Source of the DNA: a virus
Taxonomy: Duplodnaviria > Caudoviricetes
DNA length: 64,000 nucleotides
Virus record (IMG/VR): IMGVR_UViG_3300027805_000006
Direction: 5' to 3' (one strand)
Translations under genes and position numbers: made by a program
In this document: piece by piece, positions 20,110 through 50,790 of the stretch
How the letters are laid out: the number at the start of each line of letters is the position of its first letter
Position numbering within the stretch: position 1 is the first letter of the stretch
Notes under the pieces: generated by a model
The model's database searches: none
Seen by the model: only the letters and a program-made list of their open reading frames with translations
What the model was told of the DNA's origin: nothing

Positions 20110-20143
20110 TGAAAGTAGATAATAGTTTATCTACTATTTACTG

Positions 20144-20884
20144 TCATTTTTCAGCAAGTTTCTTTAGTTGCTCAAATTCAACAAGCGGTTTTTTACCAGT
20201 GCTTTTGCTCTCAGCCTTAATACCACCGGCATCTAGCCACATCTGCTTTATGAAGCGGCGCATTTCTGGAGAAGCATTCTTTCCGGTATCTACCCATTTT
20301 TTCCAAAGTTCAGACATTTTCTGCGTTACTTGAGCAGCATTAATGCCACTTGACACGGGTGGTGCGACTTCCTTTTCCTTGTCACCTTCAGCAGGCTTTT
20401 CGCCTTCCTTCTCAGCAGGCTTTTCGCCTTCCTTCTCAGCAGGCTTTTCGCCTTCCTTCTCAGCAGGCTTTTCAGCAGGCTTTTCAGCAGGCTTTTCAGC
20501 AGGCTTCTTGTCAAATGCGGGGTTATAGAGCATTGACCCCTTTGGTGCAAAAGTCAGACCTGCTTCAATATATGTTACAACTGGAGAGTCTTCTCTGAAT
20601 TTAACGTTTGTTTTGGTGTTTACCCAGCCGTCTGCTTTTTTCTCAAATGGCTTTCCATTAAAAGTTGCTGTATCACCAGTTTTAAATGACTTCTTTTCAC
20701 CGTGCTTTGTGGCATAATCTTCAGCAAATTCTTTTTCCTTTTGATACTCTTCTGGAGTAGCAGGTGCTTCAAACAGTTTTTGAAGAGATGTGCCCTCTGC
20801 AGTTTCCCTCCAGAAATCAAAAAAGGCTTCAATGTCTTCTTGAACTCTGTCTTCTAGTAGTTGAGAAAGGTGGCTAAGTTTCAT
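20144..20884 (-). CDS. Putative internal head protein with PAEK repeats
   Basis: Leader MKLSHLSQLLE; TATAAATA upstream; low-complexity PAEK/EGEK tract. Confidence 0.65.
   Translation of the reverse strand: MKLSHLSQLLEDRVQEDIEAFFDFWRETAEGTSLQKLFEAPATPEEYQKEKEFAEDYATKHGEKKSFKTGDTATFNGKPFEKKADGWVNTKTNVKFREDSPVVTYIEAGLTFAPKGSMLYNPAFDKKPAEKPAEKPAEKPAEKEGEKPAEKEGEKPAEKEGEKPAEGDKEKEVAPPVSSGINAAQVTQKMSELWKKWVDTGKNASPEMRRFIKQMWLDAGGIKAESKSTGKKPLVEFEQLKKLAEK
20387..20506. repeat. In-frame tandem repeat (3x24 bp + 4x12 bp) encoding PAEKEGEK/PAEK
   Basis: TCAGCAGGCTT units visible directly in the sequence. Confidence 0.9.
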
Positions 20885-20905
20885 TGTATCCTCAGAACTT
20901 TTGTT

Positions 20906-20913
20906 TATTTATA
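20906..20913 (-). promoter_or_regulatory. T4 late promoter TATAAATA
   Basis: Exact consensus on the - strand, overlapping the stop codon of the 20909 gene. Confidence 0.75.
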
Positions 20914-21259
20914 ATGCTACACCCTTGCCGTTAATACTGGTTAGTAGCCAGTATCCTTCAGGCATTTTCTTTAAAGTTAAGTTCTCATCATCGTTTTTAA
21001 TGAGTTCAAACCACTGTCCTGGTGAGGTGTTATAAATTCTGAATTCATTATTTCCTAATGACGTATGAATTTCAACCTTTGTGATGTCCCATATCTGGTA
21101 TGGGGGTGATGACTTAATTGATAAGGAAGCATTTCCAACTGCATATCCATCTTTTATTGCAACCTTCAGCGGCTTATGTGCTTGGTACAACTTAAGCAGC
21201 ATTTTTCCGATAAAAACATCCGGAATGCTGTCTTCCTCGAAGAGTTCAAACATCTTCAT
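20909..21259 (-). CDS. Putative internal head protein (paralog family P)
   Basis: Leader MKMFELFEE; ATGA-type coupling to neighbour. Confidence 0.65.
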   Translation of the reverse strand: MKMFELFEEDSIPDVFIGKMLLKLYQAHKPLKVAIKDGYAVGNASLSIKSSPPYQIWDITKVEIHTSLGNNEFRIYNTSPGQWFELIKNDDENLTLKKMPEGYWLLTSINGKGVAL

Positions 21260-21666
21260 CGTGGGCTATGCCCCCATACCTTTAGAGAAAGTAACTTTCT
21301 GGTTGGCTCACCATTTTCGTCATACAGTGGTCCAGCCGCACCCTTCATTCTGCTAATGAAACTTACCTGCTTACCGGCCCATCGCCAGTCATTTGCGTCC
21401 CAGTCTTTTACTGGTCGCTTCTTCATGCTGATTATGTGTTTGGCTGACTGGCGACCAGTGCTAATTCCAAGTTTTGATGCCACTGATTGCTTTAGCCCAG
21501 GATGCTTCTTCGGATCAGACTTGGCTAACTCAAGTTGGCGATCTAACCATTTTTCCAGGCTTTCAGCAGACATATTGACAAGAGTTTTCCAGCGAGAATA
21601 CAAATCCTGTCGGCGCTTCTTTTCGCTGTCAGAAACTTCTTCAGTTAAAATTTCAGAAACTCTCAT
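21256..21666 (-). CDS. Putative internal head protein with a DUF3140-like domain
   Basis: Leader MRVSEILTEE; LVNMSAESLEKWL...GRQSA...LSLKVWGHSP matches the recalled DUF3140 pattern. Confidence 0.6.
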   Translation of the reverse strand: MRVSEILTEEVSDSEKKRRQDLYSRWKTLVNMSAESLEKWLDRQLELAKSDPKKHPGLKQSVASKLGISTGRQSAKHIISMKKRPVKDWDANDWRWAGKQVSFISRMKGAAGPLYDENGEPTRKLLSLKVWGHSPR

Positions 21667-21914
21667 TTTTTATCCTTTGCCTTTTTCCAAAGGTCCTTAT
21701 CAGCTTTTCTAGCTGGCCCGTTTGTTAAAAACGATGAAACTCTTGCATGTGCCCATTGGTGCTGACTTACACCAGGCCTATGACCAGTTCTCCACGCTGC
21801 TGCACCTCTGTTCCAAACCTTCCTAAGGATTGATACCGAAATACCTGTCTTCTCAGCCTTATTCTTCAGAGCGGTATCAACGCTTCCTTCAGTAAGGAGT
21901 TCAGTTAGCTTCAT
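21663..21914 (-). CDS. Putative internal head protein, basic domain (AWRTGHRPG...WAHARVSSF)
   Basis: Start revised to MKLTELLTEG at 21914. Confidence 0.7.
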   Translation of the reverse strand: MKLTELLTEGSVDTALKNKAEKTGISVSILRKVWNRGAAAWRTGHRPGVSQHQWAHARVSSFLTNGPARKADKDLWKKAKDKK

Positions 21915-22230
21915 TTGAATACACCAGTAGGCGCCCATTAGAACCTTTTTGGAAGTGCAGTCGTCCGTCGTCCAGCATATCCTTCGTATAGACGATGTAA
22001 CGGTGTCCAGTTACCTGAGCAATCACCGAGAGCTCGAGCGAACCATCAGGACGAAGTTGGTAGCCGCTGATCTTCATCGGTTCATTCTCAATCTCCTTGT
22101 CCAGCAGCTTTACCGGCTGTCCTTTATTCTTGACGTGATCGGCAATAGTGCGCTTCAGCATTGATACTAGAATTGGTAAGTCTGCGCTTTCAGCCACGCT
22201 TACTTCAGTAAGGAGTTCAATAACCTTCAT
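21901..22230 (-). CDS. Putative internal head protein (family P)
   Basis: Leader MKVIELLTE. Confidence 0.65.
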   Translation of the reverse strand: MKVIELLTEVSVAESADLPILVSMLKRTIADHVKNKGQPVKLLDKEIENEPMKISGYQLRPDGSLELSVIAQVTGHRYIVYTKDMLDDGRLHFQKGSNGRLLVYSNEAN

Positions 22231-22850
22231 TTGCCAAATCTCCGTTCAAACTTCTTGGTGTGTTCTGACTTAGGAAGGTTTTTGCCCTTCTTCTTCAACT
22301 CAGCCTTGTACTTTTGGTCTGCTGTCCAATCATCGGGGTAGGCGGCTGGGTCAGTGTGTTCCATATCTTTAAAGCGCTTTATTTCACGTGTCATCTCAGC
22401 CTTCAGTTCTTTTTTCCTTGATGACCCTTTAAAGTTAAGATAACTCTTCTTTATTTTTTCTTCATTAGTTACCTGTTCTCTATCAATAATTGTCCAAACG
22501 CCATTTATCTTCTTAATGGTATAATTGTCATCAATGGGTCTTTCAAATTCGAAGAGCATAGTGCTCGTAGCACCACGGCCATACAACGCAAACTCCTTAT
22601 AAGGGCTAATGTGCAGTTGATCGTTGTTTATGGCACGTCTAAGTATGTCGACTGGATCAACGAGCATATACTCTGCCTGCACTACCCATCCTTCCTTAGT
22701 GCTGCGCATCGCCTGATATCCACGCTGTGTATTACCAGACAGGAAGGTACGTCCCTTCGCATTGACATAGATGGGCTTTTTAGCCTTTACTAGTTTGAGC
22801 AGCATAGTAGCTAATATGCTTTCATTCTCGAATAACTGAGCGAGCTTCAT
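22227..22850 (-). CDS. Putative two-domain internal head protein (family P domain plus basic C-terminal domain)
   Basis: Leader MKLAQLFENE; internal VTNE; C-terminal KSEHTKKFERRFG. Confidence 0.65.
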   Translation of the reverse strand: MKLAQLFENESILATMLLKLVKAKKPIYVNAKGRTFLSGNTQRGYQAMRSTKEGWVVQAEYMLVDPVDILRRAINNDQLHISPYKEFALYGRGATSTMLFEFERPIDDNYTIKKINGVWTIIDREQVTNEEKIKKSYLNFKGSSRKKELKAEMTREIKRFKDMEHTDPAAYPDDWTADQKYKAELKKKGKNLPKSEHTKKFERRFGK

Positions 22851-23149
22851 TCGTTTGGTGCAATCTGTGCGTCATAGTACTTGTGCTGGGAGTGGTCAAT
22901 CTTTCCAGTCTTCTGGTCAATCTTTCCACCATAGTGTGCTGCCTGGCGCTCAATTCTTTTGAAAAGTTCAGCCATTGCCTTCATAATAACTTCGTGGCTA
23001 TATGGCTTTTCTGGATTGGTTGCATCTAACATCTTAAAGTCAGGATTAATCTCTGCGTGTCTTTCAGCGTCTGGTGCAATAGGAACTTCAGGAGCAGAAT
23101 TTCCTGCAGCAATAATGTGTTTAGCTTTTATTAATTCACTTACCTTCAT
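22847..23149 (-). CDS. Hypothetical protein with a leader-like N-terminus
   Basis: MKVSELIKA; translationally coupled. Confidence 0.6.
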   Translation of the reverse strand: MKVSELIKAKHIIAAGNSAPEVPIAPDAERHAEINPDFKMLDATNPEKPYSHEVIMKAMAELFKRIERQAAHYGGKIDQKTGKIDHSQHKYYDAQIAPNE

Positions 23150-23151
23150 AG

Positions 23152-23607
23152 TTATTCTTCTTTGTTCTTAGGTACAAATTTTTCAGATAGTTCTTTTATC
23201 CACTCTAGCGCTACTGGAAGAGCGTCTTTTGGTGAAGCAAAGCGCTTGGAGTTTTTTGCTTTTAAAACTTGAGTTAGGCTTTGACCATCACTCATTGAAA
23301 CATACCAGCCACTCTCATTCTTAACACCATGCTTTTCTGGTGCAAAGGTGTAAATTACTGCTACCCACCCAACATTTGCTTTACCATTTTTTGCAGGTCT
23401 AATTAGTTTTGCACGCAAAATTCTTTGCTTTGGAATTCCAAACTTCCCACCCGATTTAATTGTACTCTGTTCAATTTTATCAGCGTATGGCTTAAGCGCC
23501 CTTGAAAAAAGGTTAAACATAAAATCTACTTCTTCATCGGTTTGTTGTTCAACCTCCAACTTTTCCTTAGATTTTTTTGCTGCTTCTACCAGGTTATGAA
23601 GTTTCAT
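23152..23607 (-). CDS. Putative internal head protein (paralog of 24160)
   Basis: Leader MKLHNLVEA; TDEEVDF motif. Confidence 0.65.
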   Translation of the reverse strand: MKLHNLVEAAKKSKEKLEVEQQTDEEVDFMFNLFSRALKPYADKIEQSTIKSGGKFGIPKQRILRAKLIRPAKNGKANVGWVAVIYTFAPEKHGVKNESGWYVSMSDGQSLTQVLKAKNSKRFASPKDALPVALEWIKELSEKFVPKNKEE

Positions 23608-23638
23608 TGCTAGTTCCTACCTTACTTTTTTGTGCTGT

Positions 23639-24145
23639 TCAACTGAACTTCACAATTCCCTGCGAAACTGTGGGTAGAATAATGGTAATTGAAACATTAG
23701 GTGTAGGATAAACTACGCTCAATGGAGTAACTTCGGAAAGAACAGTTTGCGTTACATCCCACGTATAGACCTTTATTTCGGGGTCATATCCAAGGTTATG
23801 CGTTACTGCCCAAGTGTTAGAATCTGATGTTTGGTAATGAGTGAAGTTAAGCCCCTGTAGAGCAAGTGCATTCTTCATTCTGTACCTGAAACTCGTAGTG
23901 CCAAGATTAGTTTCTGCTTGAACTGCAGATAGAAGAGAGTTAGCCATAGAATACCAAGCAGCATCAAATGCAGCATCATCTAGATATACAGTTCCTACGA
24001 GGGCAACTCTATCTTGTTCAAGTTGCTCTACCCAGTTTGAAAGTTGATTTACAACGCTCTTTAAAACAGCAACTTCAGTTCTTAACTCATTTCTTCTGTC
24101 ATGAAGAGAATTTACTATTGGTACACCTGATGGAAATGCTGACAT
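23639..24145 (-). CDS. Probable virion structural protein
   Basis: C-terminal TWAVTHNLGYDP beta domain, similar to the C-terminus of 44434..45324. Confidence 0.55.
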   Translation of the reverse strand: MSAFPSGVPIVNSLHDRRNELRTEVAVLKSVVNQLSNWVEQLEQDRVALVGTVYLDDAAFDAAWYSMANSLLSAVQAETNLGTTSFRYRMKNALALQGLNFTHYQTSDSNTWAVTHNLGYDPEIKVYTWDVTQTVLSEVTPLSVVYPTPNVSITIILPTVSQGIVKFS

Positions 24146-24159
24146 GCTTCGCCTTTGTA

Positions 24160-24657
24160 TTATTTCTTCTTACGTGATTTTAGATTCTTTTCAACTTCTC
24201 TTTCTTCTATCTCTTTTAATCCGTGTTCTACAGATATATGCGCCTTGGCAACATATTGTTTTATTGCCTTAAGCAACTCGGTGGGAGTTCCCTTCATTGT
24301 TTTTGGGCGACGCATTCCGATTGTTAGTTGTGCGTACCACTCTCCATCCCTGTAGTATATGAAATATTGAACTTTTCCTCTCGATGCGATGTCTATAACA
24401 TCAAAAGCATAGCCAGGAATTACAAGGTATTTTTCTCTAAACTTCTGTACTTGAGGAATTTTCAACAAACCAAATATTGTGCTGACACCATAAGAAGCAG
24501 GCACTACAAGAAAAGGATGTGAGTCTGGTGGAAGTGACTTCAGAAACATCTTATTAATAAAGTCAATTTCCTCCTGAGTTTCATGATCAACGGTCGGGGC
24601 TGCTTTATAGCCACGATTGCGATGATTAGCAGCCTCAACTAATTGAGAAAGAATCAT
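24160..24657 (-). CDS. Putative internal head protein (paralog of 23152)
   Basis: Leader MILSQLVEA; TQEEIDF motif. Confidence 0.65.
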   Translation of the reverse strand: MILSQLVEAANHRNRGYKAAPTVDHETQEEIDFINKMFLKSLPPDSHPFLVVPASYGVSTIFGLLKIPQVQKFREKYLVIPGYAFDVIDIASRGKVQYFIYYRDGEWYAQLTIGMRRPKTMKGTPTELLKAIKQYVAKAHISVEHGLKEIEEREVEKNLKSRKKK

Positions 24658-25046
24658 GCAAGATTTTCCATCTTATATTTAATTCTAGCAACAATGGCTT
24701 GAAGTTCCTCAAACTTATTCACCAAGAAGCCATCTTGCGGAATTATCTCGTGTTGCATTTCAAGGAAATGATACAACTGCGCAACAAATTCTTGTGGTGT
24801 ATTTTCACTAAAAATATTCGGTTCGCTTATTTCAATCCAAGTTTCAGTACCATATCCACCCATGTAGATTTCCATAAGATCATCTATTAGTTCATTCATG
24901 CCATCGTACAGCTCGCCGAGCGCCATGTGCTGTGAAAAGGATTTAACCTTCCAATGCCACATTCTAGCGGTGTTTTGAGCAGCTAGTAGGTGTGATACTA
25001 ATTCACCAATAGCTTCATCGTTTTTCTTATTGTTGTTATTATCCAT
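24654..25046 (-). CDS. Ferritin-like/Dps-like four-helix protein
   Basis: AxMWHWKVKSFSQHxALGELYDxxxELIDxLxExYMG resembles the Dps ferroxidase helices. Confidence 0.65.
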   Translation of the reverse strand: MDNNNNKKNDEAIGELVSHLLAAQNTARMWHWKVKSFSQHMALGELYDGMNELIDDLMEIYMGGYGTETWIEISEPNIFSENTPQEFVAQLYHFLEMQHEIIPQDGFLVNKFEELQAIVARIKYKMENLA

Positions 25047-25159
25047 TATTTCCTCTTAAAGAAGTTAATTACTGTCCATTGGTACAAAACATAGATGCGT
25101 TTTTGCTTATTTCAACAATGATTTATACCATGTTTTATTTACTTTTCCGGGTAGAATTG

Positions 25160-25417
25160 TTATCTATTTTTCATACTTTTCGTAAAAATATGCTCTAAAA
25201 GCATAAAATCAGAAAAGGTTAGTGCTGTATTTTCACCCATCATCTTCTTGAAGATGCCAGTGGTATAGGCCCAAAATCGTTTTGTCCCATGCTTGAATTT
25301 TTCTTCAGCAGATTTTTTAGCAGATTCCCAACGCTCCTCTGCCTTACTCATTGAGACACCATGTTTTTCAGCGTATTTTTTAACTAAAGTTGCTGGCATA
25401 TTATTCTCACAGTTCAA
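25160..25417 (-). CDS. Hypothetical basic phage protein
   Basis: MPATLVKKYAEKHG...WAYTTGIFKKMMG; start may be the second Met. Confidence 0.65.
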   Translation of the reverse strand: MNCENNMPATLVKKYAEKHGVSMSKAEERWESAKKSAEEKFKHGTKRFWAYTTGIFKKMMGENTALTFSDFMLLEHIFTKSMKNR

Positions 25418-25806
25418 ATTTTAGTAGGTGCAGTTTGTGGTTCCGCACTGCCAGGATATTCTTTGGCTTCGCCTGAAAGCTGTTCTAGAAAAACTGGTTT
25501 TAAAATCTTATCGCGCACAAGTTCCTTGAAGTTTGGCTTAACATCTGCGCGAACCTTTACCACAACCCTGTTGCTGTTGCCCATAAGAGGTCTAGACCCA
25601 AAAATTCCAGCAGTTGCGCTAATTGACCATTTATTTTCGCCAAAAGTACGATCAAAAATGCCCGCAGTAATTGGCCAAACTGGCCAGGCAACAATCGGCC
25701 TGACTACATAGTCCTTGTACTCAATCTGCTGTTCTGGTTCCCATTCGCCCTCCCAGTCATCATCTTGAGATAGCTTTGCAGTTTCAAAAAGTTCTGTCAG
25801 TTTCAT
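25414..25806 (-). CDS. Putative internal head protein
   Basis: Start revised to MKLTELFETA at 25806, 1 nt after the stop of the 25808 gene. Confidence 0.65.
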   Translation of the reverse strand: MKLTELFETAKLSQDDDWEGEWEPEQQIEYKDYVVRPIVAWPVWPITAGIFDRTFGENKWSISATAGIFGSRPLMGNSNRVVVKVRADVKPNFKELVRDKILKPVFLEQLSGEAKEYPGSAEPQTAPTKI

Positions 25807-25807
25807 T

Positions 25808-26353
25808 TTAACCAAACTTTTTCTTGAGGGCGGCTCTAAGAGCATCTGCCTTCGCTGCACTAATAAGTTTTGAAGTATTTTGCTGCTGTGAAATTGCTCC
25901 ATAGGCAGACTTAAGCTTTTCATCCTTTGTTTTTTTATGAACACGTGAATTATACAGCCAAGCTGCCATTGCCAAAACACCAATATCTCCGTCGCGATAC
26001 CTTGCCCAACGTCCTTCTGCATCAGATGCGCCGCTGTCATTCCATTTTTCTAAAATACGCGCTTCATTTGCTGGAGATTTTGATTTAAACATTACTCTGC
26101 TAATAATTTTTTTCCCATCAGAAGTTTCTATACGAACAAATACACCACGAAGTGCATTAAAGACTCTGATTAAAATATTTCCAAGACCCATTTTGATTCG
26201 TTCAGATTTTACTTCTTTTCCAACCTTCAGTACCTTTTCTGCAGTATCATCATCAACGACGACTAATTCATTTGGTTGGGTGTCAAGAAATGATGCAGCT
26301 TTATTCATGGCAAGCTGATTAGCATTTTCATTTAATAGCTCATGGATTTTCAT
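25808..26353 (-). CDS. Putative internal head protein
   Basis: Leader MKIHELLNE; internal PANE/ILE sites. Confidence 0.65.
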   Translation of the reverse strand: MKIHELLNENANQLAMNKAASFLDTQPNELVVVDDDTAEKVLKVGKEVKSERIKMGLGNILIRVFNALRGVFVRIETSDGKKIISRVMFKSKSPANEARILEKWNDSGASDAEGRWARYRDGDIGVLAMAAWLYNSRVHKKTKDEKLKSAYGAISQQQNTSKLISAAKADALRAALKKKFG

Positions 26354-27156
26354 TTTTGCACAGATATTTGCTTAATCAGAGTTGGTAAATGTGTCTCAAG
26401 CCATTGCACATATTGCTGACTTGAGTACTTGTTTGCATTTTTTGTGATTGTGGCAATAAATTGAGTTCCAACATGATCTGCAATAAGTTGCCCAAATGAT
26501 GATTTTGCACCCTGCCCTGAGACCGTCTTATCAACGCCAAATTCATGTGTTCGTTGGCCCGTCTTAATTCCACTATCTGCTAACCACTTCTTTACGACTG
26601 CAACTAGGTCCTTTTCAACACTGGGGTCATAGTAGTAGAACTTCAATGAGTCATTGTGTGACATAAAATAATCCAAATGACGGTGTGTCTTGAAGCTAAT
26701 CGGCGTCTGCTTATCATTTGAAAAATCGCGTATCTTTGAAATGAGCGTGTTGAATGATTTTAGAAACTTTGCGATATTTTCTTTTGTACGCTCAACCGTG
26801 ATATAGTAGTTCAATGTGCGGTCTTGGCCTGTTTTTCTTGGTATGTTAGCATTTATATCAACTTGTGCCCACGGTCCGCCGCCGCCAGTATTGAAGAATT
26901 TTCCGCTAAAGTAAGTCTTCCACGCGTTTACAGCGGTGTCATCAAAGCCAACCTGCTTTGCCTTTCCTATTTTGGCAATATCAACATCATTTACAACGAT
27001 GTCATATATAATTGACTTTATTTCTTTTTGAAGAGTAGAATTACTGGTATCAACTACTAGATCTGAAATAAGTTTTTCTAATTTTGCTTTTACGGGAGCA
27101 AAGTTAAACTGCTGAGCTTCAGCCAAAACCTGTAGATAAATGTCAGCCAGTTTCAT
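26350..27156 (-). CDS. Putative internal head protein
   Basis: Leader MKLADIYLQVLAEA; 268 aa. Confidence 0.65.
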   Translation of the reverse strand: MKLADIYLQVLAEAQQFNFAPVKAKLEKLISDLVVDTSNSTLQKEIKSIIYDIVVNDVDIAKIGKAKQVGFDDTAVNAWKTYFSGKFFNTGGGGPWAQVDINANIPRKTGQDRTLNYYITVERTKENIAKFLKSFNTLISKIRDFSNDKQTPISFKTHRHLDYFMSHNDSLKFYYYDPSVEKDLVAVVKKWLADSGIKTGQRTHEFGVDKTVSGQGAKSSFGQLIADHVGTQFIATITKNANKYSSQQYVQWLETHLPTLIKQISVQK

Positions 27157-27163
27157 TTTACAC

Positions 27164-27367
27164 TCATCTAATATTAAGTTTAGCCTTAAGCTCCTCTAGA
27201 CCTTCTGTTCCGCTGATATTCTCTTTCTCAGCCGCTTTAGGGTCAGTAAGCGTTAGTTTCCAATTACCACCATTACCTGCTTTAGCCTTACGAAGGTATG
27301 CTGGTGTTTTAACACGAGTTGATGCCTTTGGGGCAGCAGCTGTTTCTAGTAGTTGACTAACTTTCAT
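27164..27367 (-). CDS. Putative small basic internal head protein
   Basis: Leader MKVSQLLETA. Confidence 0.65.
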   Translation of the reverse strand: MKVSQLLETAAAPKASTRVKTPAYLRKAKAGNGGNWKLTLTDPKAAEKENISGTEGLEELKAKLNIR

Positions 27368-27606
27368 TTTTGATATTGTCCTTTCAGTACCACTTTAAAT
27401 GTTCCTAAGTCTGTCGATACATAAAGATTGTGCGCTATTTCCTTTGAAGGATTTGCAGTGACCATATGGTTGTGTGCGTCAATTGCTTCCCTCTTGCTTT
27501 GGAAATACTTTACTGCATCGTTCATCTTACTTTCAACGCCATTATTATTTAGGCGGTGCAGCCAAATATTAGTGCGTTTTTTAGACCACATTTCATCAAT
27601 CTTCAC
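27364..27606 (-). CDS. Hypothetical protein with a leader-like N-terminus
   Basis: MKIDEMW; coupled to neighbours. Confidence 0.55.
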   Translation of the reverse strand: MKIDEMWSKKRTNIWLHRLNNNGVESKMNDAVKYFQSKREAIDAHNHMVTANPSKEIAHNLYVSTDLGTFKVVLKGQYQK

Positions 27607-28067
27607 TTTGTTTCCTTCGTTTCAGCGTCAATTGACATCATTTTCAGTATTTCCTCTCGGCTTGCAACAACTAGACCATTTGGATTTTTTGAAGCGTATG
27701 GAACAAATGCTGACGCCTTCTTTCTATCGCCGCGCACCTTAGCCTTTGTTGCTGCTGCATTCAGCGCAATATTGAGGTAGTTAGCAGCAACCTCAGCATT
27801 GCGGGCGGCATATCTTGGCTCAGTTATTTCAGCAAACTGCATCTGCTGCTGGAACGTGTCATATGCAGCATCATAGACTTGGTCAATCTTTTTGTCAATC
27901 TCAACATCCTCTGGCTCAACTTCAGTAGAAGGAGCAGGTGCTTGAAAAGATGCAAGAGTTGCTTCAGTCATTATACTGTACTCAGTGACATCTCTGACAG
28001 GCTCCTCAGTTTGGAATAAATCATCAAGTGGATGAATATACTTGCTGTCAGGTTGAAGCGTTTTCAT
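27603..28067 (-). CDS. Candidate terminase small subunit (gp16-like)
   Basis: Helical EPRYAARNAEVAANYL and C-terminal NGLVVASREEIL resemble gp16 motifs; adjacent to gp4; start revised to MKTLQ. Confidence 0.45.
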   Translation of the reverse strand: MKTLQPDSKYIHPLDDLFQTEEPVRDVTEYSIMTEATLASFQAPAPSTEVEPEDVEIDKKIDQVYDAAYDTFQQQMQFAEITEPRYAARNAEVAANYLNIALNAAATKAKVRGDRKKASAFVPYASKNPNGLVVASREEILKMMSIDAETKETK

Positions 28068-28163
28068 TTTGTTCCCCACTGCTAAAATAATAAAAGAGCA
28101 CCTTTTGCCCCTAGATTATCCGTTACTGGTTGATAAAGAGTTTTTATCTTTCTTGCCAGCACT

Positions 28164-28637
28164 TTAGACAGCATTACCGGGCGCTGGTGGCTTTCTTTTA
28201 TTTATGCCTCCCCACAGCGTTTTCTCTGTTACAACACGGAAATGCGCGCCCATTTGATTGGCATATGCTGATGCCGCTGCCCATTTTGCTTGATTTACCA
28301 CAAGCGCCATCTTGTCTCTGTCAGTCATCTTGGGAGTTGGCACTGTTTGTGAGTAGGGCTTTATCTCAACTATTTCTTTTCGAACACTACCATCTTTGTG
28401 CTTATACAAAACAATAATATCGGGGAAATAGCGATGAACTCGGTTGTCGAGTGGGCTTACATATGGAATAATGAGTTCTTCTGAACCAAATTTTAGAACT
28501 GCAGGATTTTGGTCAAGCCATTTCATAAAAGCAAATTCCCATGAGGATCTAAAAAAAATATTATTCGCATTCCCAAGATACTTCTGTGGATTTTGGCAGA
28601 TAAACCTGCCACGCATCGTAGAATTTGCGCCCTTCAT
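28164..28637 (-). CDS. gp4: Head completion nuclease (T4 gp4-like)
   Basis: KYLG...FRSSWE...FGSEELIIPYVSPLDNRVHRYFPD...EIKP. Confidence 0.9.
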   Translation of the reverse strand: MKGANSTMRGRFICQNPQKYLGNANNIFFRSSWEFAFMKWLDQNPAVLKFGSEELIIPYVSPLDNRVHRYFPDIIVLYKHKDGSVRKEIVEIKPYSQTVPTPKMTDRDKMALVVNQAKWAAASAYANQMGAHFRVVTEKTLWGGINKRKPPAPGNAV

Positions 28638-30067
28638 GGACCACCTGGACCGCTTGCTGGGTCAAGCCCGGGATTTTGTGGGCTATAGAAATTTGATGAA
28701 GATTGTGTAGAAACTGCTGGAGTTGTTTGACCTGTTCTGTCTGATAGAATCCCCGACATTGGACGCGCCGTTGCTTGATTCACCTTGCTGAATAGCCCAG
28801 CAGCCTGATCTGCAACTGCTGACTGCACTAAACCACCAGCCGCACTGCTTAGACCGCTCACTGCAGACCCTGCTGCTTGGCGAAGGATTGAGCCCATGAT
28901 TCCATTTCCACCGATCTGCTGTACTGCCTTGTTCACAAGGCTAGAGGTAAGTTGCTGTGCTGCTTTTCCAGCCACACCACCCAAGATATTTGCAAATGGG
29001 TTTGCCCTGCCTGCACTATTTCCTGCACTTGCTGCTTGTGCCCTGGCGGCTGGTGCAGCAGTGCTATTTCCTTGTAGTATATCTGTGGGTGCTCCAGAGC
29101 CAGTTACTCCTTGCTGACCAACAAGTCCTGCCACCGGGAAGTTTAGTGGTGGACCACCATCTCCAGTTACGAGTAACTTATCATGTTTAGTCATCTCCAT
29201 CCAATCATAGTCAAACTGCATGGTCAGAAGGTTAGGATCAGATGATTCGTGCGATAAGTCGTCAAGGTCAAATGATACAAGCCGAGGATTAACATAATCA
29301 TAGAATACCGCTTTTACTGCATTATCTTTTGATCCTGGTGTAGTAGTTGGGTCAATGAAAATCTGTTTGACGCGAATAATGTCAATTGCATTTCCCGCAT
29401 TTGCGTTGAACACCGCACGGTGGGCGATGTCTCCACCACCAGGAAAATTGTTAAAGTCGGAGAATGCCATTCCGTTGCCTTTTTGCCATCCTTCAGGATC
29501 TGGCTTAGCATTTACATTACCATCCCGCTGCATAGATGCGCGAGTAATTGGTGAATAAACCATCAGTAATATTCTAAAGAAATCAAATACATTGTTTCCT
29601 ACGTCATCAAGAAACGTTATAGTGAGTTCGCGGTGCTTTACTTTCTTTAGCGCCTTCGTTCTGAAGTTATACATGTTAACGTCATCTTCATACTCGAAGT
29701 CTACCTTTGGGCGGTCTACCTGCTTTATCATGAAGGTAAAGTCGCTTCTATCCAGCCAAGGTGCGATATCCCTAAGTTGAGGACTAAAGAAAAACTGTAC
29801 CTTGAAAAGAAACTTTAGTTTTGGTCTTGCAGGTGTTCCACCTGCTAAAGATGCAGCATATGACGTTGCATCCCAACTTGAACTTTTTGGCTGTTGTTCT
29901 GGACGAAGCGCTACGCCCGCCGCAGAAGATGTAGGTATCTTTAGTTTACCGCGTACGAAGTCTTCAACTGCACCGCTGAGTTGCTTTTGTGCTTCATTTT
30001 GAAGAGCACCGCTTGCTTGCTTTGCGAGTGATATCCCAGAAGACTTAAGAATATTATCTATTTTCAT
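28634..30067 (-). CDS. Tail-tube-fold baseplate/tube initiator protein (gp48/gp54-like) with a low-complexity tail
   Basis: KFLFKVQF...VDRPKVDFE...ELTITFLDD...LTMQFDYD tube-like pattern. Confidence 0.6.
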   Translation of the reverse strand: MKIDNILKSSGISLAKQASGALQNEAQKQLSGAVEDFVRGKLKIPTSSAAGVALRPEQQPKSSSWDATSYAASLAGGTPARPKLKFLFKVQFFFSPQLRDIAPWLDRSDFTFMIKQVDRPKVDFEYEDDVNMYNFRTKALKKVKHRELTITFLDDVGNNVFDFFRILLMVYSPITRASMQRDGNVNAKPDPEGWQKGNGMAFSDFNNFPGGGDIAHRAVFNANAGNAIDIIRVKQIFIDPTTTPGSKDNAVKAVFYDYVNPRLVSFDLDDLSHESSDPNLLTMQFDYDWMEMTKHDKLLVTGDGGPPLNFPVAGLVGQQGVTGSGAPTDILQGNSTAAPAARAQAASAGNSAGRANPFANILGGVAGKAAQQLTSSLVNKAVQQIGGNGIMGSILRQAAGSAVSGLSSAAGGLVQSAVADQAAGLFSKVNQATARPMSGILSDRTGQTTPAVSTQSSSNFYSPQNPGLDPASGPGGP

Positions 30068-30125
30068 TTAGCAGAGAAACCCAGCAATATGTCTTATTTA
30101 TGATATTTCTGAGTTCAAGGAGTTG

Positions 30126-31132: not shown

Positions 31133-32719
31133 ATGACAAAAAATAGAACTTTAGATGATCACATCAAACTTGGGCACGTTCGGTACATTTCAAAAGATGC
31201 TGAACAGGAACTTATAGAAAGAACGCCTGGTTGTAGTGGTGACAATGCAGAAAGATTATTTTGGCTTTTGAATGGATTGTCTTCATATCCTAAATGTCAA
31301 TCGTGTTCTAACACTTTAACATCTAAACAGTGGCAGCCTTTCTTAAAGAAACTTCACCGTACTGATGAAAACAAAAAGAGTGGTTATCTTCCATTTTGCG
31401 GAAAAAGTTGCGCTTATCTTAATGGGTCAAAAAAGGAAACCTATAAAAAAACCTGTATTGAGCGCTACGGGGTTGAACACCCAATGCTGACAGACGATGT
31501 TGTTGCCAAGATAAAAGCAACTAACATTGACCGCTATGGAGAACCAGCACCTATGCGCTGGTCTGGTCAAAAATTCAAAGATGCTATTAGGCAAAAATAC
31601 AATGTAGAAAATGTGCGGGCAATACCACGGGTGCATGAAGCAACAATTTACGCGAAAGCAAAAACAACTACTGAACTGCTACCTCTAAAAATTATTGAAT
31701 TAGAAAAATTGTTTAACGTAGAATGTCAAACAGATTTATCACAATTTGTTCTTATTCATCGCATGTATGATATTTCATTTTCTTGGAAACACAAGTGTGG
31801 AAGGGTTTATGAAAGCAATATATCTGAGCGTGGAATTCGCCAGTGCCCAAGTTGCTCATCAGGAACATCTAAAGGTGAGCAGGCAGTCATGGACTTTATT
31901 AAGTCTCTTGGCATAGAGGTTGAGCATCGAAACAAGTCAGTGATTGCACCAAAAGAAATTGACATCTGGATACCTGAGCATAAACTCGGTATTGAGTTTG
32001 ACGGTACCTACTGGCACAGCGCTAAGTTCCAAAATGAAAAGCAGAGTTTAGAAAAACTGACCATGATGGAGCAGATTGGCTGTCGTCTAATTACGCTGCA
32101 GGAGCACCTGTGGGTCAATAAGCCTGAGCACGTCAAGAACCGGTTGGCGTCAATTCTAGGTAGAAATAAACGAGTGCAGGGTAGAAAAACAGAGGTACGC
32201 GAGATTGACAAGGAAGCGGCGCGGGAGTTCCTAACTGAGAACCACCTTCAGGGCTATGCACGTTCAACTGTGCAACTTGGTCTGTTTTACAAGGATGAAC
32301 TCATCTCAGTTGCTACCTTCTCAAAGCCAAGGTGGGCAAAAAAGCATGACTGGGAATTAATTCGCATGGCTTCAAAGGCTGGATTAATGGTGCAGGGTGG
32401 ACCATCAAAACTTATATCTGAGTTTAGGAAAAATTATTCTGGAAGTTTAATAAGTTACGCTGATCGGTGCTGGAGCACAGGCAACGTTTATAATCAAGTT
32501 GGTTTTAAGTTTAGCCACTTTACGACTCCCTCCTATTGGTGGATCCACCATATGTTGGGAACATATGCCAGGTACCAGACACAGAAGAAAAAACTTCCAA
32601 GGCTCCTCACAGATCTTAATAAGACGTTTTCTCCAGAACTTTCTGAGGAAGACAATATGCGAATTGCTGGGTTTTTGCCGCTGTATGACCGAGGAAATAG
32701 CGTTTGGATTTTAGCCTAA
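31133..32719 (+). mobile_element. Free-standing Hef-like (DUF559/Vsr-type PD-(D/E)xK) homing endonuclease
   Basis: Zn ribbons (CQSC, FCGKSC, CPSC), ERYGVEHP repeats, EIDIWIPEHKLGIEFDGTYWHS nuclease core, C-terminal YADRCWSTG domain; antisense to the structural operon. Confidence 0.8.
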
Positions 32720-33028
32720 TTCGTTGCTGACGACAAGCGTCTTGACGCCATCTCGCTCTTCTACCTTTAGACGGAGCGTATCTAGTTGCTCATCCGATAG
32801 GTAACTATTCATGCCCCATCTTTTTCCATGCTTCGTGGAAAATAGCCAGTCATTATACTTGTATTCTACTGACGACAACTCACCGTCTTTTATTTGCGTG
32901 TATTTTCCAATAAGTTCAGCAACGTGCACTGGCTTACCAGCATCGAGCCACTTTTTGATTGTTTCGACGGCAAGCCTACCTCGCATGGATACCTTATCGC
33001 TGAAGTCCAGTATTTCCGTCAGAAGCAT
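32711..33028 (-). CDS. Putative internal head protein (family P)
   Basis: Leader MLLTEILD; IKKWLDAGKPVHV...DGVKTLVVS. Confidence 0.65.
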   Translation of the reverse strand: MLLTEILDFSDKVSMRGRLAVETIKKWLDAGKPVHVAELIGKYTQIKDGELSSVEYKYNDWLFSTKHGKRWGMNSYLSDEQLDTLRLKVEERDGVKTLVVSNELG

Positions 33029-33625
33029 TTAAACCTCTTTTTGATTTACCCAAATAGTTTCAAGAGGTTTCTTTACTATGCTTTTTCCTTCAGAAATAAT
33101 TCCAATTTTCATCTGCTTAATCATTTGGGGAGTTATGTCTCTTGAGCGAAGACCACCTCTTAAGAAGAAATGAACAGGTACAGGTGCATCGCCAAGCATG
33201 CGGCGAATAGTACGCATTCTTCCTCTTCCCTCGTGTCCCCTTATTTTTGGCAGTGAAAACAGATCATCTTCATCTTCTGAAAATTGTATTGATAAGAAAG
33301 GAATTCCAACCGCATATCCCTCTTTTATCAGACGTTCAAGTTCTATAGATGTAGGTTCCTGTGCGCCATCATCAGAAAGAGCCAGGCTTAAAAACACTGA
33401 AGGCTTAACCATTGCCACAAAGCCCTCATACCAAACATTTTGATTACTTGGTACTGAACCTAGCCCATCAGAAGCGCTAAAGGTTATATCACCTATTCTG
33501 TAATTTTTTTCCGCGTGGGCTGGTGACCAGGCAGGAGCATCAACAATTTTCTTGGCATAGACCTTTCGGTCTTCTTTATTTTCTCTTACGGATGTAATTC
33601 CAAGAAACTGCTTAAACGTCTTCAT
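33029..33625 (-). CDS. Putative internal head protein with a ParB/Srx-like fold
   Basis: Leader MKTFKQFLG...SVRE; IRGHEGRGR motif. Confidence 0.6.
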   Translation of the reverse strand: MKTFKQFLGITSVRENKEDRKVYAKKIVDAPAWSPAHAEKNYRIGDITFSASDGLGSVPSNQNVWYEGFVAMVKPSVFLSLALSDDGAQEPTSIELERLIKEGYAVGIPFLSIQFSEDEDDLFSLPKIRGHEGRGRMRTIRRMLGDAPVPVHFFLRGGLRSRDITPQMIKQMKIGIISEGKSIVKKPLETIWVNQKEV

Positions 33626-33628
33626 AAC

Positions 33629-33991
33629 TTATTTTTCCTTATGACCAGTAAAAATAAGTTTATTGTGCCCTTTACCATTAACATTAAACAGTATTTTAAA
33701 CTTGTCCACGTCTTCTTCTTTAATTTCCATCTCTCTTTGGCCCGTAAAGTCACCAAAATCCTCGTTCCAGTGATCGTAATAGATAACAACAGGTGTTTGT
33801 ATTTTTCCAGAAGAGTCCGTATATGGATGCCCAACTTCCGCACCACCGACCACTCCGACATAATAGCCATCATCATAGTTGTCAATAAAGATATTCAAAC
33901 CATTGTGCGTATCACTAACACGGTTTATCATTTTTATAAAAAATGCCGCGTCTATCATCTCAGTAATAAACTGTTTAAAGGTTTTTTGCAT
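33629..33991 (-). CDS. Internal head protein with a T4 CTS-like leader (family P)
   Basis: MQKTFKQFITE. Confidence 0.7.
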   Translation of the reverse strand: MQKTFKQFITEMIDAAFFIKMINRVSDTHNGLNIFIDNYDDGYYVGVVGGAEVGHPYTDSSGKIQTPVVIYYDHWNEDFGDFTGQREMEIKEEDVDKFKILFNVNGKGHNKLIFTGHKEK

Positions 33992-33992
33992 T

Positions 33993-34328
33993 TTAATCTT
34001 TCATCAGCAGCGCATTTCTCTTCTTGCCGGTGGGAGATAGTACAGTGCCAAAATAAAGTTTATCAATATCATCTTTGTGAATGGATAAAACCGCTGGAAC
34101 AAATGTGTGTTCATACTCGCTCCACGCTTTGAACTCAATATCTATACCACCGCCAGAATTAACACTAACACCATCATATTCTGGTGATTCAATTTCACCT
34201 TCTTCATAGTTACCATCATTGTAGTAGCCTTGAAGATAAAGAGGGGAAATAGCCTGCTTTTTCCTAATTAACTTTACAAGAAACTCTGAATCCATAAATT
34301 CAAGAAGGAAGTGCTTAAATGTTTTCAT
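33993..34328 (-). CDS. Internal head protein with a T4 CTS-like leader (family P)
   Basis: MKTFKHFLLE. Confidence 0.7.
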   Translation of the reverse strand: MKTFKHFLLEFMDSEFLVKLIRKKQAISPLYLQGYYNDGNYEEGEIESPEYDGVSVNSGGGIDIEFKAWSEYEHTFVPAVLSIHKDDIDKLYFGTVLSPTGKKRNALLMKD

Positions 34329-34668
34329 CTTTAGTAAGTATTAAGGTTTTGACGCCATCAATTGTTTTTACTTTGAGGTTTGGAATTAGGCTTCTGTGAA
34401 TATGGATAATTGGATTATTTTTATCAAAATCATCATCAAAATTCTTCCTATATTCAACAAACAGACCTTCCAAACTTCCCACCCAGACCTTGTTAATAAA
34501 ACCTTTTGCTTGCATAGAAGAATCGTTTGGCAAGTCATATTGAACAAGTGGAAAGTCTTCTGGTGCTATTTTAATGGCAAATTTGCCGCCGGCATCAACT
34601 GACTTCTTTATCATCTTGACAATGAATTCTTTATCGAACTCTAATAGAAATTGCTTGAATGTCATCAT
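34315..34668 (-). CDS. Internal head protein with a T4 CTS-like leader (family P)
   Basis: MMTFKQFLLE. Confidence 0.7.
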   Translation of the reverse strand: MMTFKQFLLEFDKEFIVKMIKKSVDAGGKFAIKIAPEDFPLVQYDLPNDSSMQAKGFINKVWVGSLEGLFVEYRKNFDDDFDKNNPIIHIHRSLIPNLKVKTIDGVKTLILTKDENI

Positions 34669-46611: not shown

Positions 46612-47892
46612 TTAGCTAAATGCCACATTTTGTACTAGAACGCGAGCGTAGTAATCTGCGCTGTTGCCCAGTGATGTGCCTGTGCTTGTGAAAGTTGCCT
46701 TACCATAACGTGTCATCAGGCTGACTGCTGGCATGAAGGTGTTGGCATCAACAACTACGCCAGAAGACATTAGAGGAACGTATGGGCAGTAGAAGTAACC
46801 GCTGTCGAGTTCAGAGGCACCGCCCTTGAAGCCGATCAGGATGTCTTCGCCTGTTGCGCCGGCAGCATTTACTGCACCGCCGCTGATTGACCATGCGTCA
46901 TTTACACCCCAATTGTATGAGTAAACCTTCATCTGACCATTCATTGTGCCAACCATACGGTTGCCAACTGGTGCATCGAAGGAACCTGATACTGCTGGTG
47001 CAAATACTGACTTAGCGGCTGACTGGAGCATAGAAGTGATCAGGTGACCACCGACTAGCCAGTTGCCAGGACCACGACGGGTCTTAGCACCGATTTCGTT
47101 AGCCATCTTGTTGATCAGTACGCCGAGGTGGGCATAGCGATCGCCTAGATAGTTAGGTGCAAAACCTGGTGTGGCTGATGCAAAGTCGAACGTTGCCGTT
47201 GTGTTTGCCAGAGCCAGTAGGTCTGTCAGGATTTCATTGTCGATTTCGTGAGCGATTTGTGCTGATAGAGCAGCAGTTAGTTCGCTCTCGAGGTCCAGAC
47301 CGTGCTGTGCATTCAGGTCTTGAGCAGCTTCCATTGACCAGCGAGCTTGCAGCTTACGTGAGCCAGCTGTGATGGTCTGCTTCAGAACTGATAGACGCAT
47401 TGCCTTACCACCAAAGCCTTCGAAGTTGCCAGTCGTGGCGGCGAAGCCGTCAGATGTAGCAGCTGTTACAGCTGGTGGGTAGCCGGCGGTACCGACGTTT
47501 GCAGAAGAGTAGAAACGCTTCATCTTGCTGTTATTGCCGAAGGCTTCGTCGCCAGCAGCAATATCGTTTCCAGCAACTACTGAGGCGCCAGTGGCGTCAG
47601 CAGCTTCGCTGAAAGCAAAACGCAGTGAGTATACTAGTCCTACTGGACCAGACATTGGCTGAACGCCAACTAGGTCAGAGGAAATCGTACCTGGAAGGAT
47701 ACGACGGATCATTGGAATTACAATCTTCTGGAAGTTTGCAATATCACCAGCGCCTTGAGCGCCAGCTGGTGCTGTTTCCATTAGATGCTTTTTTTGGTTT
47801 TCTAGAAGAGTCTCGACGACCTGCTTCTTTGAACCCTGGAGGCCTTCAAGAAGAGCCTCTTTGGTCTCTTGCCAGTTTTCAAACAGTTGCAT
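46612..47892 (-). CDS. gp23: Major capsid protein (gp23-like)
   Basis: IPMIRR...VGVQPMSGPVGL, SRKLQARWSMEAAQDL, EIDNEI, YFYCPYVPL, MTRYG. Confidence 0.95.
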   Translation of the reverse strand: MQLFENWQETKEALLEGLQGSKKQVVETLLENQKKHLMETAPAGAQGAGDIANFQKIVIPMIRRILPGTISSDLVGVQPMSGPVGLVYSLRFAFSEAADATGASVVAGNDIAAGDEAFGNNSKMKRFYSSANVGTAGYPPAVTAATSDGFAATTGNFEGFGGKAMRLSVLKQTITAGSRKLQARWSMEAAQDLNAQHGLDLESELTAALSAQIAHEIDNEILTDLLALANTTATFDFASATPGFAPNYLGDRYAHLGVLINKMANEIGAKTRRGPGNWLVGGHLITSMLQSAAKSVFAPAVSGSFDAPVGNRMVGTMNGQMKVYSYNWGVNDAWSISGGAVNAAGATGEDILIGFKGGASELDSGYFYCPYVPLMSSGVVVDANTFMPAVSLMTRYGKATFTSTGTSLGNSADYYARVLVQNVAFS

Positions 47893-47921: not shown

Positions 47922-48815
47922 TTACTTGATACCTGCGAGGCGCTTCAGGTGTGCAAGTCCTTCATTGACTGGCACAGCCTTTTGCTGGGTAGTTGCTACT
48001 GACTCTTCGCCAGTTACAACCTTCGTTTGTGTTTCAACAGCTTTTTCTTCAGTCAGTGCCTGTGCAACTTCTGCTGCCTGCTCACCTTCCTTTAGAATTC
48101 TGCCAATGAAAAATTTGTATGATTCTTCAAGACGAGCAGTGTCAACGTTCTTTAGGACCATTGCCATTTGCTCACGCTTCTTGCCAGTCAGAGAAGATAG
48201 AACCTGCTCCATCTTGGCTTCGCGAATCATCTTGTTGATTTCTTCTTCGCTATCAGCAAGACGCTTTTCAGCATCTGATAGCTTTTGTTCTGCTACGTTC
48301 AGTTTAGACTGAATTGCCTCTTCATCAACATAGCTTTGTGAGTACTCGTTGACGAAGGCTTCAAAAATGCGACGACCGAATTCATTCTGCTTGACGACTT
48401 CAAGATCTTCTTTGAGTTCGTCCATTTCAGAAGTCAGGCGCATTTCGAAGAAAGCGTCGATTTTGTCGACTAGAGAGTCTAGCTCTGTTGCAACTTCAGT
48501 TGCGAGCTTATGCTTCTCTTCAACTAGCTTTTCAGCGTATTCTGCCTCTAGATCACGGAAGCGCTCGATGTCTCCCTTGAGCTCAGAAATTTCCTTTGTT
48601 AGGGCTTCTGCAACGAAACCATCTACTTTAGAGATGAGTTCGTCTCTTTCAGAAATCCACTGTTCAGCTAGTTCATTACGAACTTCCATTGAAACGTCTT
48701 CACGGACTTTCGTCTTGAAGGCTTCAACAGATGCTGTCCATTGCTCAGAAATCTCTGTTTTGGTTTCTTCGCTGAGAAGCTCGGACTGTAGAAGCTTGTT
48801 CAGAATCTCATCCAT
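47922..48815 (-). CDS. gp22: Prohead core scaffold protein (gp22-like)
   Basis: Acidic coiled-coil, FGRRIFEAF motif, position upstream of the capsid gene. Confidence 0.85.
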   Translation of the reverse strand: MDEILNKLLQSELLSEETKTEISEQWTASVEAFKTKVREDVSMEVRNELAEQWISERDELISKVDGFVAEALTKEISELKGDIERFRDLEAEYAEKLVEEKHKLATEVATELDSLVDKIDAFFEMRLTSEMDELKEDLEVVKQNEFGRRIFEAFVNEYSQSYVDEEAIQSKLNVAEQKLSDAEKRLADSEEEINKMIREAKMEQVLSSLTGKKREQMAMVLKNVDTARLEESYKFFIGRILKEGEQAAEVAQALTEEKAVETQTKVVTGEESVATTQQKAVPVNEGLAHLKRLAGIK

Positions 48816-48961: not shown

Positions 48962-49171
48962 TTATTCGTCTGAAGTTTCTTCTTCAGAGTCAAACTCAGG
49001 CATTTCTGCGCTATTCAAACGTTCTTCATTTTCTAAACTTGCTGCTTGTGCTAGACCAGCAACTTCTCGTGTCTTAGATACGAAATAATCGTGCATTGAA
49101 ACGGCAGCTTGTTCTTCCTTGCCGTTAATGATGTCCTGAAGCATTCCTTTTAGAAGTTCTCTGTTATCCAT
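48962..49171 (-). CDS. Small acidic prohead core protein (gp67/68-like), paralog A
   Basis: MLQDIINGKEEQAAVSMHDYFVSKTREVAG; located in the head module. Confidence 0.6.
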   Translation of the reverse strand: MDNRELLKGMLQDIINGKEEQAAVSMHDYFVSKTREVAGLAQAASLENEERLNSAEMPEFDSEEETSDE

Positions 49172-49220: not shown

Positions 49221-49652
49221 TCATTTTGCAATCTCCTCTAAGGATTTTGCTAGACTTGACATCGCATCCATATAGTCTTGTGAGGATGAAGAGAATTTTC
49301 CTTCTAACTCCTTCTTTAGTAGATCACAAACTTCGCCAGCAAATTGCTTCCATTCCTTGATTTTTCTGAACTCCTTATGCTTTTCATTTATTACCATTGC
49401 AACATTCAACGTGCCGTGAGTATTGTATGCATTGCCTTTATCACGAAGACCTTCACGCAGGGCGCTGATTGCCACCTTACAAAGTTCACGATCTATCACT
49501 ACCTTTGGAGCAATCGACCCGTACTTATCATCCAACCTACTCTTGGCAATCAAGAGAGCGTCTTTAACATCAAGAGAAAGGTCAAATGCTGAATCGGATT
49601 TACTAACAGTGAATCCGGCAAACCCTTCAACAATAATTTCAGAAAGCTTCAC
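49221..49652 (-). CDS. Putative internal head protein
   Basis: Leader MKLSEIIVEG; located in the head module. Confidence 0.65.
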   Translation of the reverse strand: MKLSEIIVEGFAGFTVSKSDSAFDLSLDVKDALLIAKSRLDDKYGSIAPKVVIDRELCKVAISALREGLRDKGNAYNTHGTLNVAMVINEKHKEFRKIKEWKQFAGEVCDLLKKELEGKFSSSSQDYMDAMSSLAKSLEEIAK

Positions 49653-50178: not shown

Positions 50179-50790
50179 TTATTTTGAGCCCTTGCGAATT
50201 GCTTCAAGAAGACATAAAATTTCCTTTTTCAAATAAGCTTGTGCATTCTTATCATGTACTACTGTTTCAGCAAGAGACATAATCTTCTTGCTTCCAAGTG
50301 CTTCCATAACTGCAGATGGGTAGGCATCAGGAGCAGATGGCTGTGACACGATGTCTACGGTAACGAATGAGAAGTCAGAAACTTCTCCACTCTCATTTAC
50401 GTTTCCAGTTCCGCGTGATGATACTCCTAGTCTTACTCCACCCTCAATTAGACCGCGTGCAATATTTCCGCAGGGGGTGTTAAGAAGTTTCATCTTGCCA
50501 ACAACGTTATTTCCATCCATTGTCATTTCAGAAATGACGTGTGATACTCTTCCAAGGTCAATTGACAGGGTGTCAGGGTGATTTAGTTCGCCGCAAATGC
50601 TAAAGCCTTCGCTGATTTTCTTCTGTGCAGACTCAACTACCTTTGACATTTCTGCGGAGCGGTACTTTCTTCCATTTCCATTTACACACTCTGCCTGCAT
50701 CAGAATACCCTTTAGGTATAGGTCTTGGCCCTTGCGCATTTCGCAGAGGCTAGCAGTAGATGGTGAAAGCTGTTCTGTTAAGATTTTCAT
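50179..50790 (-). CDS. gp21: Prohead protease (gp21-like)
   Basis: NGNGRKY, GELNHP, RVSHVI, GVSSRGTG, TVDIVSQPSAPDA. Confidence 0.92.
   Translation of the reverse strand: MKILTEQLSPSTASLCEMRKGQDLYLKGILMQAECVNGNGRKYRSAEMSKVVESAQKKISEGFSICGELNHPDTLSIDLGRVSHVISEMTMDGNNVVGKMKLLNTPCGNIARGLIEGGVRLGVSSRGTGNVNESGEVSDFSFVTVDIVSQPSAPDAYPSAVMEALGSKKIMSLAETVVHDKNAQAYLKKEILCLLEAIRKGSK

Follow-up and report, generated by a model that had tools for sequence, protein, structure and literature searches.

The array of genes at positions 20144-27606 of the viral DNA analysed here (the window: 64,000 nucleotides of IMG/VR record IMGVR_UViG_3300027805_000006, Duplodnaviria; Caudoviricetes) raises the question of why most of its 17 members, all on the minus strand, encode proteins that begin alike and then diverge. 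The first-pass annotation proposed that the common start is a capsid-targeting leader, by which ~21 proteins are loaded into the phage head, matured by the prohead protease and possibly injected, as for the internal proteins (IPs) of phage T4. The analysis makes it probable that the start is a T4-like capsid-targeting and cleavage tag, borne by a large, fast-changing set of cargo proteins.

The motif M-[KRI]-[LVIM]-x-[EQNHD]-[LIM] opens 14 of the 17 array genes, as had been claimed, compared with 2 of the 48 remaining genes in the window (Fisher p = 1.2e-9). Its rate inside proteins is 0.0015, and on the plus strand a single open reading frame (ORF) of at least 40 residues carries it. Two of the starts (21914 and 25806) lie within longer ORFs, the former being supported by homologues beginning MKV.EL; the GTG start at 27606 is the least certain of the 14. 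Beyond the array, the four MKTFKQF-type starts reported at 33-34.7 kb and the similar starts of the protease (MKILTE) and capsid protein (MQLFE) are present. Reported recurrences of the leader hold for 49652 (MKLSEIIVEG) and 33028 (MLLTEIL), but the start at 61596 (MKLLQELL) is similar only and falls outside the motif. No tag is present on the nuclease and MazG-like genes (42.6-46.3 and 57.6-60.9 kb), which had been annotated as metabolic genes without the leader. A generic feature of late genes can be rejected because fibre, sheath, portal and baseplate genes lack a tag start.

The tag comprises 8-10 residues, with the consensus MK[VL]xEL[FL]E in 66 distinct instances found in the window and in relatives. 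Among these, GAA is about as frequent as GAG, Leu codons are distributed among CTG, CTT, CTC and CTA, and no conserved nucleotide motif is present in the 30 bases upstream. Conservation of the tag is at the level of the peptide, independent of codons; the codon counts and the lack of any peak in the upstream profile rule out explanations at the nucleotide level, whether AT-rich codons, a translation signal or a recombination box. A Ser-rich tag linked to a radical-SAM enzyme was also dismissed, the tag here being of different sequence (acidic, 8-10 residues, without a Ser run) and the window genes scanned giving no radical-SAM match. The tag is found in 19 uncultured IMG/VR relatives, on the terminase strand, with 0-1 match on the opposite strand; in a 251-kb relative, a degenerate DNA pattern for it gives 13 matches, compared with 0 for a reversed control. 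Among cultured phages, a strict DNA pattern gives 4 matches in RsoM2USA, 1 in PA5oct and 0 in XacN1, and searches with the array (megablast) and with its 207-residue protein (tblastn) gave no matches.

The genomic setting is that of a T4-type head. The window comes from an uncultured jumbo myovirus, and one of its proteins has been recorded on a 329,993-base contig. The head proteins have profile matches to Peptidase_S77 (8.9e-28), Gp23 (2.3e-88) and Portal_T4 (4.1e-88), the prohead protease also matching the T4 gp21 structure 5jbl (4.8e-13). Further genes encode a T4-type large terminase (TerL), tail sheath, gp15-like sheath stabiliser, tail tube and head-closure protein. The closest cultured phages are RsoM2USA (55% identity in the major capsid protein, 47% in TerL), XacN1 and PA5oct, and a TerL with 61-78% identity is present on 19 IMG/VR contigs.

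In T4, the capsid-targeting sequence is MKTYQEFIAE (PMC8442874); mutagenesis assigned residues 4 and 7 to targeting and residues 8 and 10 to processing, and gp21, which cuts C-terminal to Glu, has LIE-9 close to its own N-terminus (PMC9026906). A [LIMV]-x-E site is present in all 14 array tags, ending at residues 8-13 in 12 of them, and in the homologues of the 26350-27156 protein [LI]-x-E at 11-13 is invariant. In the capsid protein, LLE-31 and LME-39 lie near where mature T4 gp23 aligns. Three genes of a second cluster with MKTFKQF[IL]xE-type starts (33991, 34328 and 34668) have all four of the mapped T4 features (aromatic residues 4 and 7, I8 and E10), the likeness to T4 extending over T4 positions 1-4, 7, 8 and 10; a homologue in RsoM2USA begins MQTFKQFLSE. 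By contrast, the main tag, with V/L3, L6, F/L7 and E8, does not keep these features and lacks aromatic residues at 4 and 7. It is a shorter relative, ending L-[FL]-E. Prediction of a complex between the protease and the 83-residue tagged protein gave a score of 0.00, which weighs neither way.

The array lies among presumptive late genes, its same-strand neighbours encoding tail tube, head-closure and terminase proteins, and behind predicted late-promoter cores. On the coding strand, TAAATA occurs 20 times in intergenic DNA, compared with 3.5 expected and a maximum of 9 in 200 shuffles; in coding DNA it occurs 9 times, compared with 36 expected (whole window, minus strand), and this avoidance fits selection against stray late promoters. 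The hexamer is found 25-60 nt ahead of fibre, tube, sheath, scaffold and protease genes, a placement as expected for a putative T4-type late promoter core. A terminator-like hairpin with a T-run is present at 28094-28112 (minus strand), between the head-closure gene and the 158-residue gene preceding the array; transcription of the array may therefore rely partly on internal TAAATA cores.

A link to virions comes from PA5oct, the GenBank record of which (MK797984.1) marks proteins detected in virions by electrospray ionisation tandem mass spectrometry (PMC7318152). Annotated PA5oct proteins with a motif start are virion-positive in 6 of 9 cases, compared with 93 of 461 overall (Fisher p = 0.003), the six being gp150 (MKINDIITEG, the gene of which adjoins the portal gene), gp175, gp230, gp238 (MKIKDILVES), gp314 and gp380. 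PA5oct, likewise a jumbo phage, has a related head of T4 type and virion proteins that begin in this way; it differs in that only about nine such genes are present, dispersed over the genome, the authors being silent on the start. No homology to PA5oct proteins was found for any of the window's tagged proteins. In the related jumbo phages phAPEC6 and 121Q, bubblegrams gave signs of internal protein embedded in the DNA (PMC7247149).

These observations bear on the possibility that the tag is a docking or recognition peptide for a partner unrelated to the head, e.g. a chaperone, a modifying enzyme, a degradation machine or an anchor at a site in the cell. A detachable tag conserved as a peptide would suit such a partner, and PA5oct encodes its own ClpX, ClpA, ClpS and ClpP. 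The presence of a tagged gene in the head module, the enrichment in PA5oct virions, the probable late operon context and the hydrophobic-x-Glu at the end of the tag point instead to the head, making a partner elsewhere unlikely.

When the bodies were compared by BLAST after removal of the first 12 residues, at least 10 families were distinguished, with only a few pairs of bodies linked (21259 with 22850, 23607 with 24657, and 33028 with 34668), so that the diversity reported earlier is mostly right, some paralogous pairs apart; one paralogue family has about seven members, drawn from both clusters. Independent Pfam families among the bodies include DUF5824 and DUF3140. DUF5824 homologues from other phages (n=120) have tags of their own that are alike in form (MKFKEYIEE, MKTFKQYINE, MKIFTFLEYLVES, MFGE); these close with hydrophobic-x-Glu, and a linker of variable length separates them from the conserved domain. 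A podovirus homologue is without a tag. In two other DUF5824 lineages, unrelated neighbouring genes carry that lineage's own tag. Such variants (MINFNEFITE, MKKFSEIIE, MKNFKNHIAE, MILNFNEYLILE) occur on unrelated neighbour proteins in lineages including the T4-like phages Melnitz and HTVC008M, where the tagged genes are located between helicase and primase genes; a nucleotidyltransferase-like protein and a DUF6267 protein are among the products. In AlphaFold models, the DUF5824 protein of the array (83 residues) has a confident domain at 12-82, with residues 1-10 at a pLDDT (predicted local distance difference test) of ~50, and the 268-residue protein has residues 1-13 at <50, a stretch that ends exactly at LAE-13 and precedes a confident domain. 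As modelled, the tag is in both cases a detachable, unpacked N-terminal extension.

It might be argued that the start was simply inherited, i.e. that fast-diverging paralogues, or cassettes recombined behind a conserved 5' end, have kept it for folding or coupled translation. The family of about seven has a common helix after the start, another paralogous pair is present, and many genes adjoin or overlap the stop of the preceding gene, with no Shine-Dalgarno sequence. Yet at least 10 bodies are unrelated by BLAST, homologues of the DUF5824 and DUF3140 proteins occur elsewhere without such a start, the nucleotide-level conservation that could drive recombination was not found, and neither model has the start packed into the fold; common inheritance is very unlikely to account for the array.

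The flanks, i.e. the head-closure, 158-residue, DUF5856 and TerL genes, are syntenic in 10-13 loci of relatives, and in 19 syntenic loci 8 of the 14 tagged genes are without a homologue. With conserved flanks on either side, the slot bounded by the head-completion and terminase genes is hypervariable. The IP loci of T-even phages are comparably variable (PMC9026906). After the putative cut, nine of the 14 proteins are predicted to be basic and five neutral or acidic. The 268-residue protein (26350-27156) gave a confident model, with best PDB matches to the LxmY lyase, HopA1, the lanthipeptide lyase domain of ThurKC and SpvC, an Atlas search agreeing; the motifs NYYITV, PISFKTH, HNDSLK and RTHxHGVD are common to 13 homologues. 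The model suggests a phospho-Ser/Thr-lyase or HopA1-like fold, the activity being a lead only. Three of its homologues have an N-terminal extension of ~200 residues before an invariant [LI]xE-x-Q-x-F. PARP/Arr-like Atlas matches for the 22227-22850 protein scored <0.9, too weak to be used.

The same data speak to the proposal that the tag does target the prohead, but that its bearers are parts of the core or scaffold that are degraded and expelled, like T4 gp67, gp68 and gp22. One tagged gene is located between the protease and scaffold genes and many bodies contain further [LI]-x-E sites. Scaffold parts are, however, usually conserved, unlike the 8 of 14 tagged genes that lack a homologue in the syntenic slot; the folded domains and the enzyme-like fold better match cargo, and the PA5oct counterparts are present in mature virions. 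An expelled scaffold therefore has a slim chance of being the explanation.

Several points weigh against a T4-like packaging tag. The main tag is unlike that of T4, being shorter and without an aromatic residue at position 4. T4-like pelagiphages carry similar starts on large enzymes of the replication region. In the paralogue family of about seven proteins the start could simply belong to the domain, and a neutral or acidic mature form is predicted for five of the 14. The PA5oct test has few cases (n = 9), its mass-spectrometry list including probable contaminants such as RNR and ClpP, and RsoM2USA, the nearest cultured phage, has only 47-55% identity in TerL and the capsid protein, and few such starts. 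On the other side are the T4-type head, the hydrophobic-x-Glu sites, peptide-level conservation, the modular leader, the predicted late promoters, the hypervariable slot and the PA5oct enrichment, which together favour a leader read by a gp21-type protease, as originally proposed, their bearing on packaging and cleavage being indirect. The number of ~21 loaded proteins should be taken as an upper estimate because a few members have no clear cleavage site or an uncertain start.

We infer the following sequence of events. The tagged proteins would be made late in infection and docked, via the tag, onto the scaffolding core of the prohead, where the gp21-family protease would cut after hydrophobic-x-Glu at the end of the tag. 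The mature proteins, mostly basic, would be kept inside the filled head and, by analogy with T4 and its IPI*, the cargo would probably exit with the DNA at infection. The slot between head-completion and terminase genes would then be a cargo locus that gains and loses tagged genes. A role in anti-defence or host takeover is suggested by analogy with IPI* and by the one effector-like fold, that of the 26350-27156 protein. The most far-reaching version, in which a simple tag lets the clade load ~20 rapidly exchanged proteins into the head, to be injected as a first-wave arsenal against the host, one of them HopA1 or phospho-Ser/Thr-lyase-like, is tentative and, as a whole, rather doubtful.

The principle is known from T4; the variant of the tag and the scale are new. 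As with the T4 IPs, a short N-terminal tag ending in hydrophobic-x-Glu is found on otherwise unrelated, often basic proteins, together with a gp21-family protease and a gp22/gp23-type head, and the loci differ among related phages; T4 has three IPs, compared with ~20 tagged genes here, 14 of them in one array, in a clade that, like its host, is uncultured. The annotation's statement that this is far more than in T4 is overstated, because processing in T4 extends to Alt, gp67, gp68 and gp24, and phiKZ-like phages have dozens of packaged, processed proteins. T4 Alt, gp67, gp68, gp24 and gp21 have propeptides cut after Glu (PMC5694885, PMC9026906); LIE-9 of gp21 is comparable to the MKILTE start of the protease here, and one tagged gene is in the head module, but these are conserved head parts, unlike most of the array genes. 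The inner-body and ejection proteins of phiKZ, 201phi2-1 and SPN3US, processed by gp175/gp245 (PMC5694885, PMC7411985), are similar in that, in these giant phages, a gp21-related protease cuts numerous internal head proteins after x-E and paralogue families have N-termini in common. Their propeptides, however, are mostly of 80-130 residues with an S/A/G-x-E motif, as against 8-10 residues for the tag, and their head genes are of another lineage; in addition, those phages are nucleus-forming and have an RNA polymerase in the virion.

Should the tag act as its T4 counterpart does, sequence alone would suffice to list which proteins of uncultured giant phages are packaged and possibly injected, giving a direct pointer to candidate host-takeover and counter-defence proteins; lineage-specific versions across T4-type phages, if real, would let the injected set be read in the same way. 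The hypervariable slot would then be a place to seek new functions of such kind, and the tag a natural short means of loading foreign proteins into large phage heads.

Features of the window; starts of encoded proteins are given in one-letter code, and minus-strand genes begin at the higher coordinate.
Position	Strand	Feature	Start	Remarks
20144..20884	-	tagged gene, 246 aa	MKLSHLSQLLE	PAEK/EGEKPAEK low-complexity repeats in body; TATAAATA 28 nt upstream
20909..21259	-	tagged gene, 116 aa	MKMFELFEE	paralogue family A
21256..21666	-	tagged gene, 136 aa	MRVSEILTEE	DUF3140/DUF6321-like body, basic
21663..21914	-	tagged gene, 83 aa	MKLTELLTEG	DUF5824 domain
21901..22230	-	tagged gene, 109 aa	MKVIELLTE	motif start
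22227..22850	-	tagged gene, 207 aa	MKLAQLFENE	paralogue family A, basic
22847..23149	-	tagged gene, 100 aa	MKVSELIKAK	single Glu site is VSE-5
23152..23607	-	tagged gene, 151 aa	MKLHNLVEA	paralogue of 24160-24657
23639..24145	-	untagged array gene, 168 aa		
24160..24657	-	tagged gene, 165 aa	MILSQLVEA	paralogue of 23152-23607
24654..25046	-	untagged array gene		DUF5856/Dps-like; kept in 13 relatives
25160..25399	-	untagged array gene, 79 aa		homologue in RsoM2USA head module
25414..25806	-	tagged gene, 130 aa	MKLTELFET	motif start
25808..26353	-	tagged gene, 181 aa	MKIHELLNE	motif start; basic
26350..27156	-	tagged gene, 268 aa	MKLADI (MKLADIYLQVLAE)	predicted HopA1 / phospho-Ser/Thr-lyase-like fold
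27164..27367	-	tagged gene, 67 aa	MKVSQLLET	motif start; basic
27364..27606	-	tagged gene, 80 aa	MKIDEMW	GTG start, uncertain
30101, 28205, 25142, 24682, 20912, 20141 (span 20136..30101)	-	predicted NTAAATA cores serving array		
32711..34668	-	second cluster, five genes	MMTFKQFLLE, MKTFKHFLLE, MQKTFKQFITE, MKTFKQFLG, MLLTEIL	behind one GTAAATA core
34696	-	TAAATA core heading second cluster		
46612..47892	-	gp23-family major capsid protein	MQLFE	N-terminal region with LFE-5, LLE-16, LLE-31, LME-39
47922..48815	-	scaffold-like acidic protein		homologues are genes directly upstream of capsid gene in RsoM2USA, XacN1, PA5oct
49221..49652	-	tagged gene in head module, 143 aa	MKLSEIIVEG	between protease and scaffold genes
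50179..50790	-	gp21-family prohead protease (Peptidase_S77)	MKILTE	profile and T4 gp21 structure
51697..53361	-	gp20-family portal protein		Portal_T4 match
61129..61596	-	tag-like gene, 155 aa	MKLLQELLSISEE (MKLLQELL)	similar, outside motif

Within the head module, an ORF of ~308 residues (50865-51791, minus strand) is located between the protease and portal genes, in part overlapping the end of the latter; its sole match is a weak one to HTH_23, and it looks like a homing-endonuclease-type insertion splitting the module. Two small acidic proteins, encoded at 48962-49171 and 49704-50138 (minus strand), have 69% identity over 48 residues (..LQxIINGKEExAAVSMHDYFVSKTREVAGL) and are homologous to XacN1 ORF298; from their sequences, they appear to be a local duplication. 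The portal protein has an (EAPA)n low-complexity repeat at its C terminus. Elsewhere, three fibre-like genes (6833-8290, 13278-15578 and 15717-17903, minus strand) encode a near-identical N-terminus (MLYDGLSLAEGT[AS]VSNLTIASGTSN) with differing bodies, an arrangement suggestive of a shared attachment module and interchangeable distal parts. A gene at 31133-32719, one of the few on the plus strand of the window, encodes 528 residues with REase_MTES_1575, DUF7487 and Mom-like matches, has TATAAATA 20 nt upstream, and may be a mobile endonuclease or DNA-modification gene.

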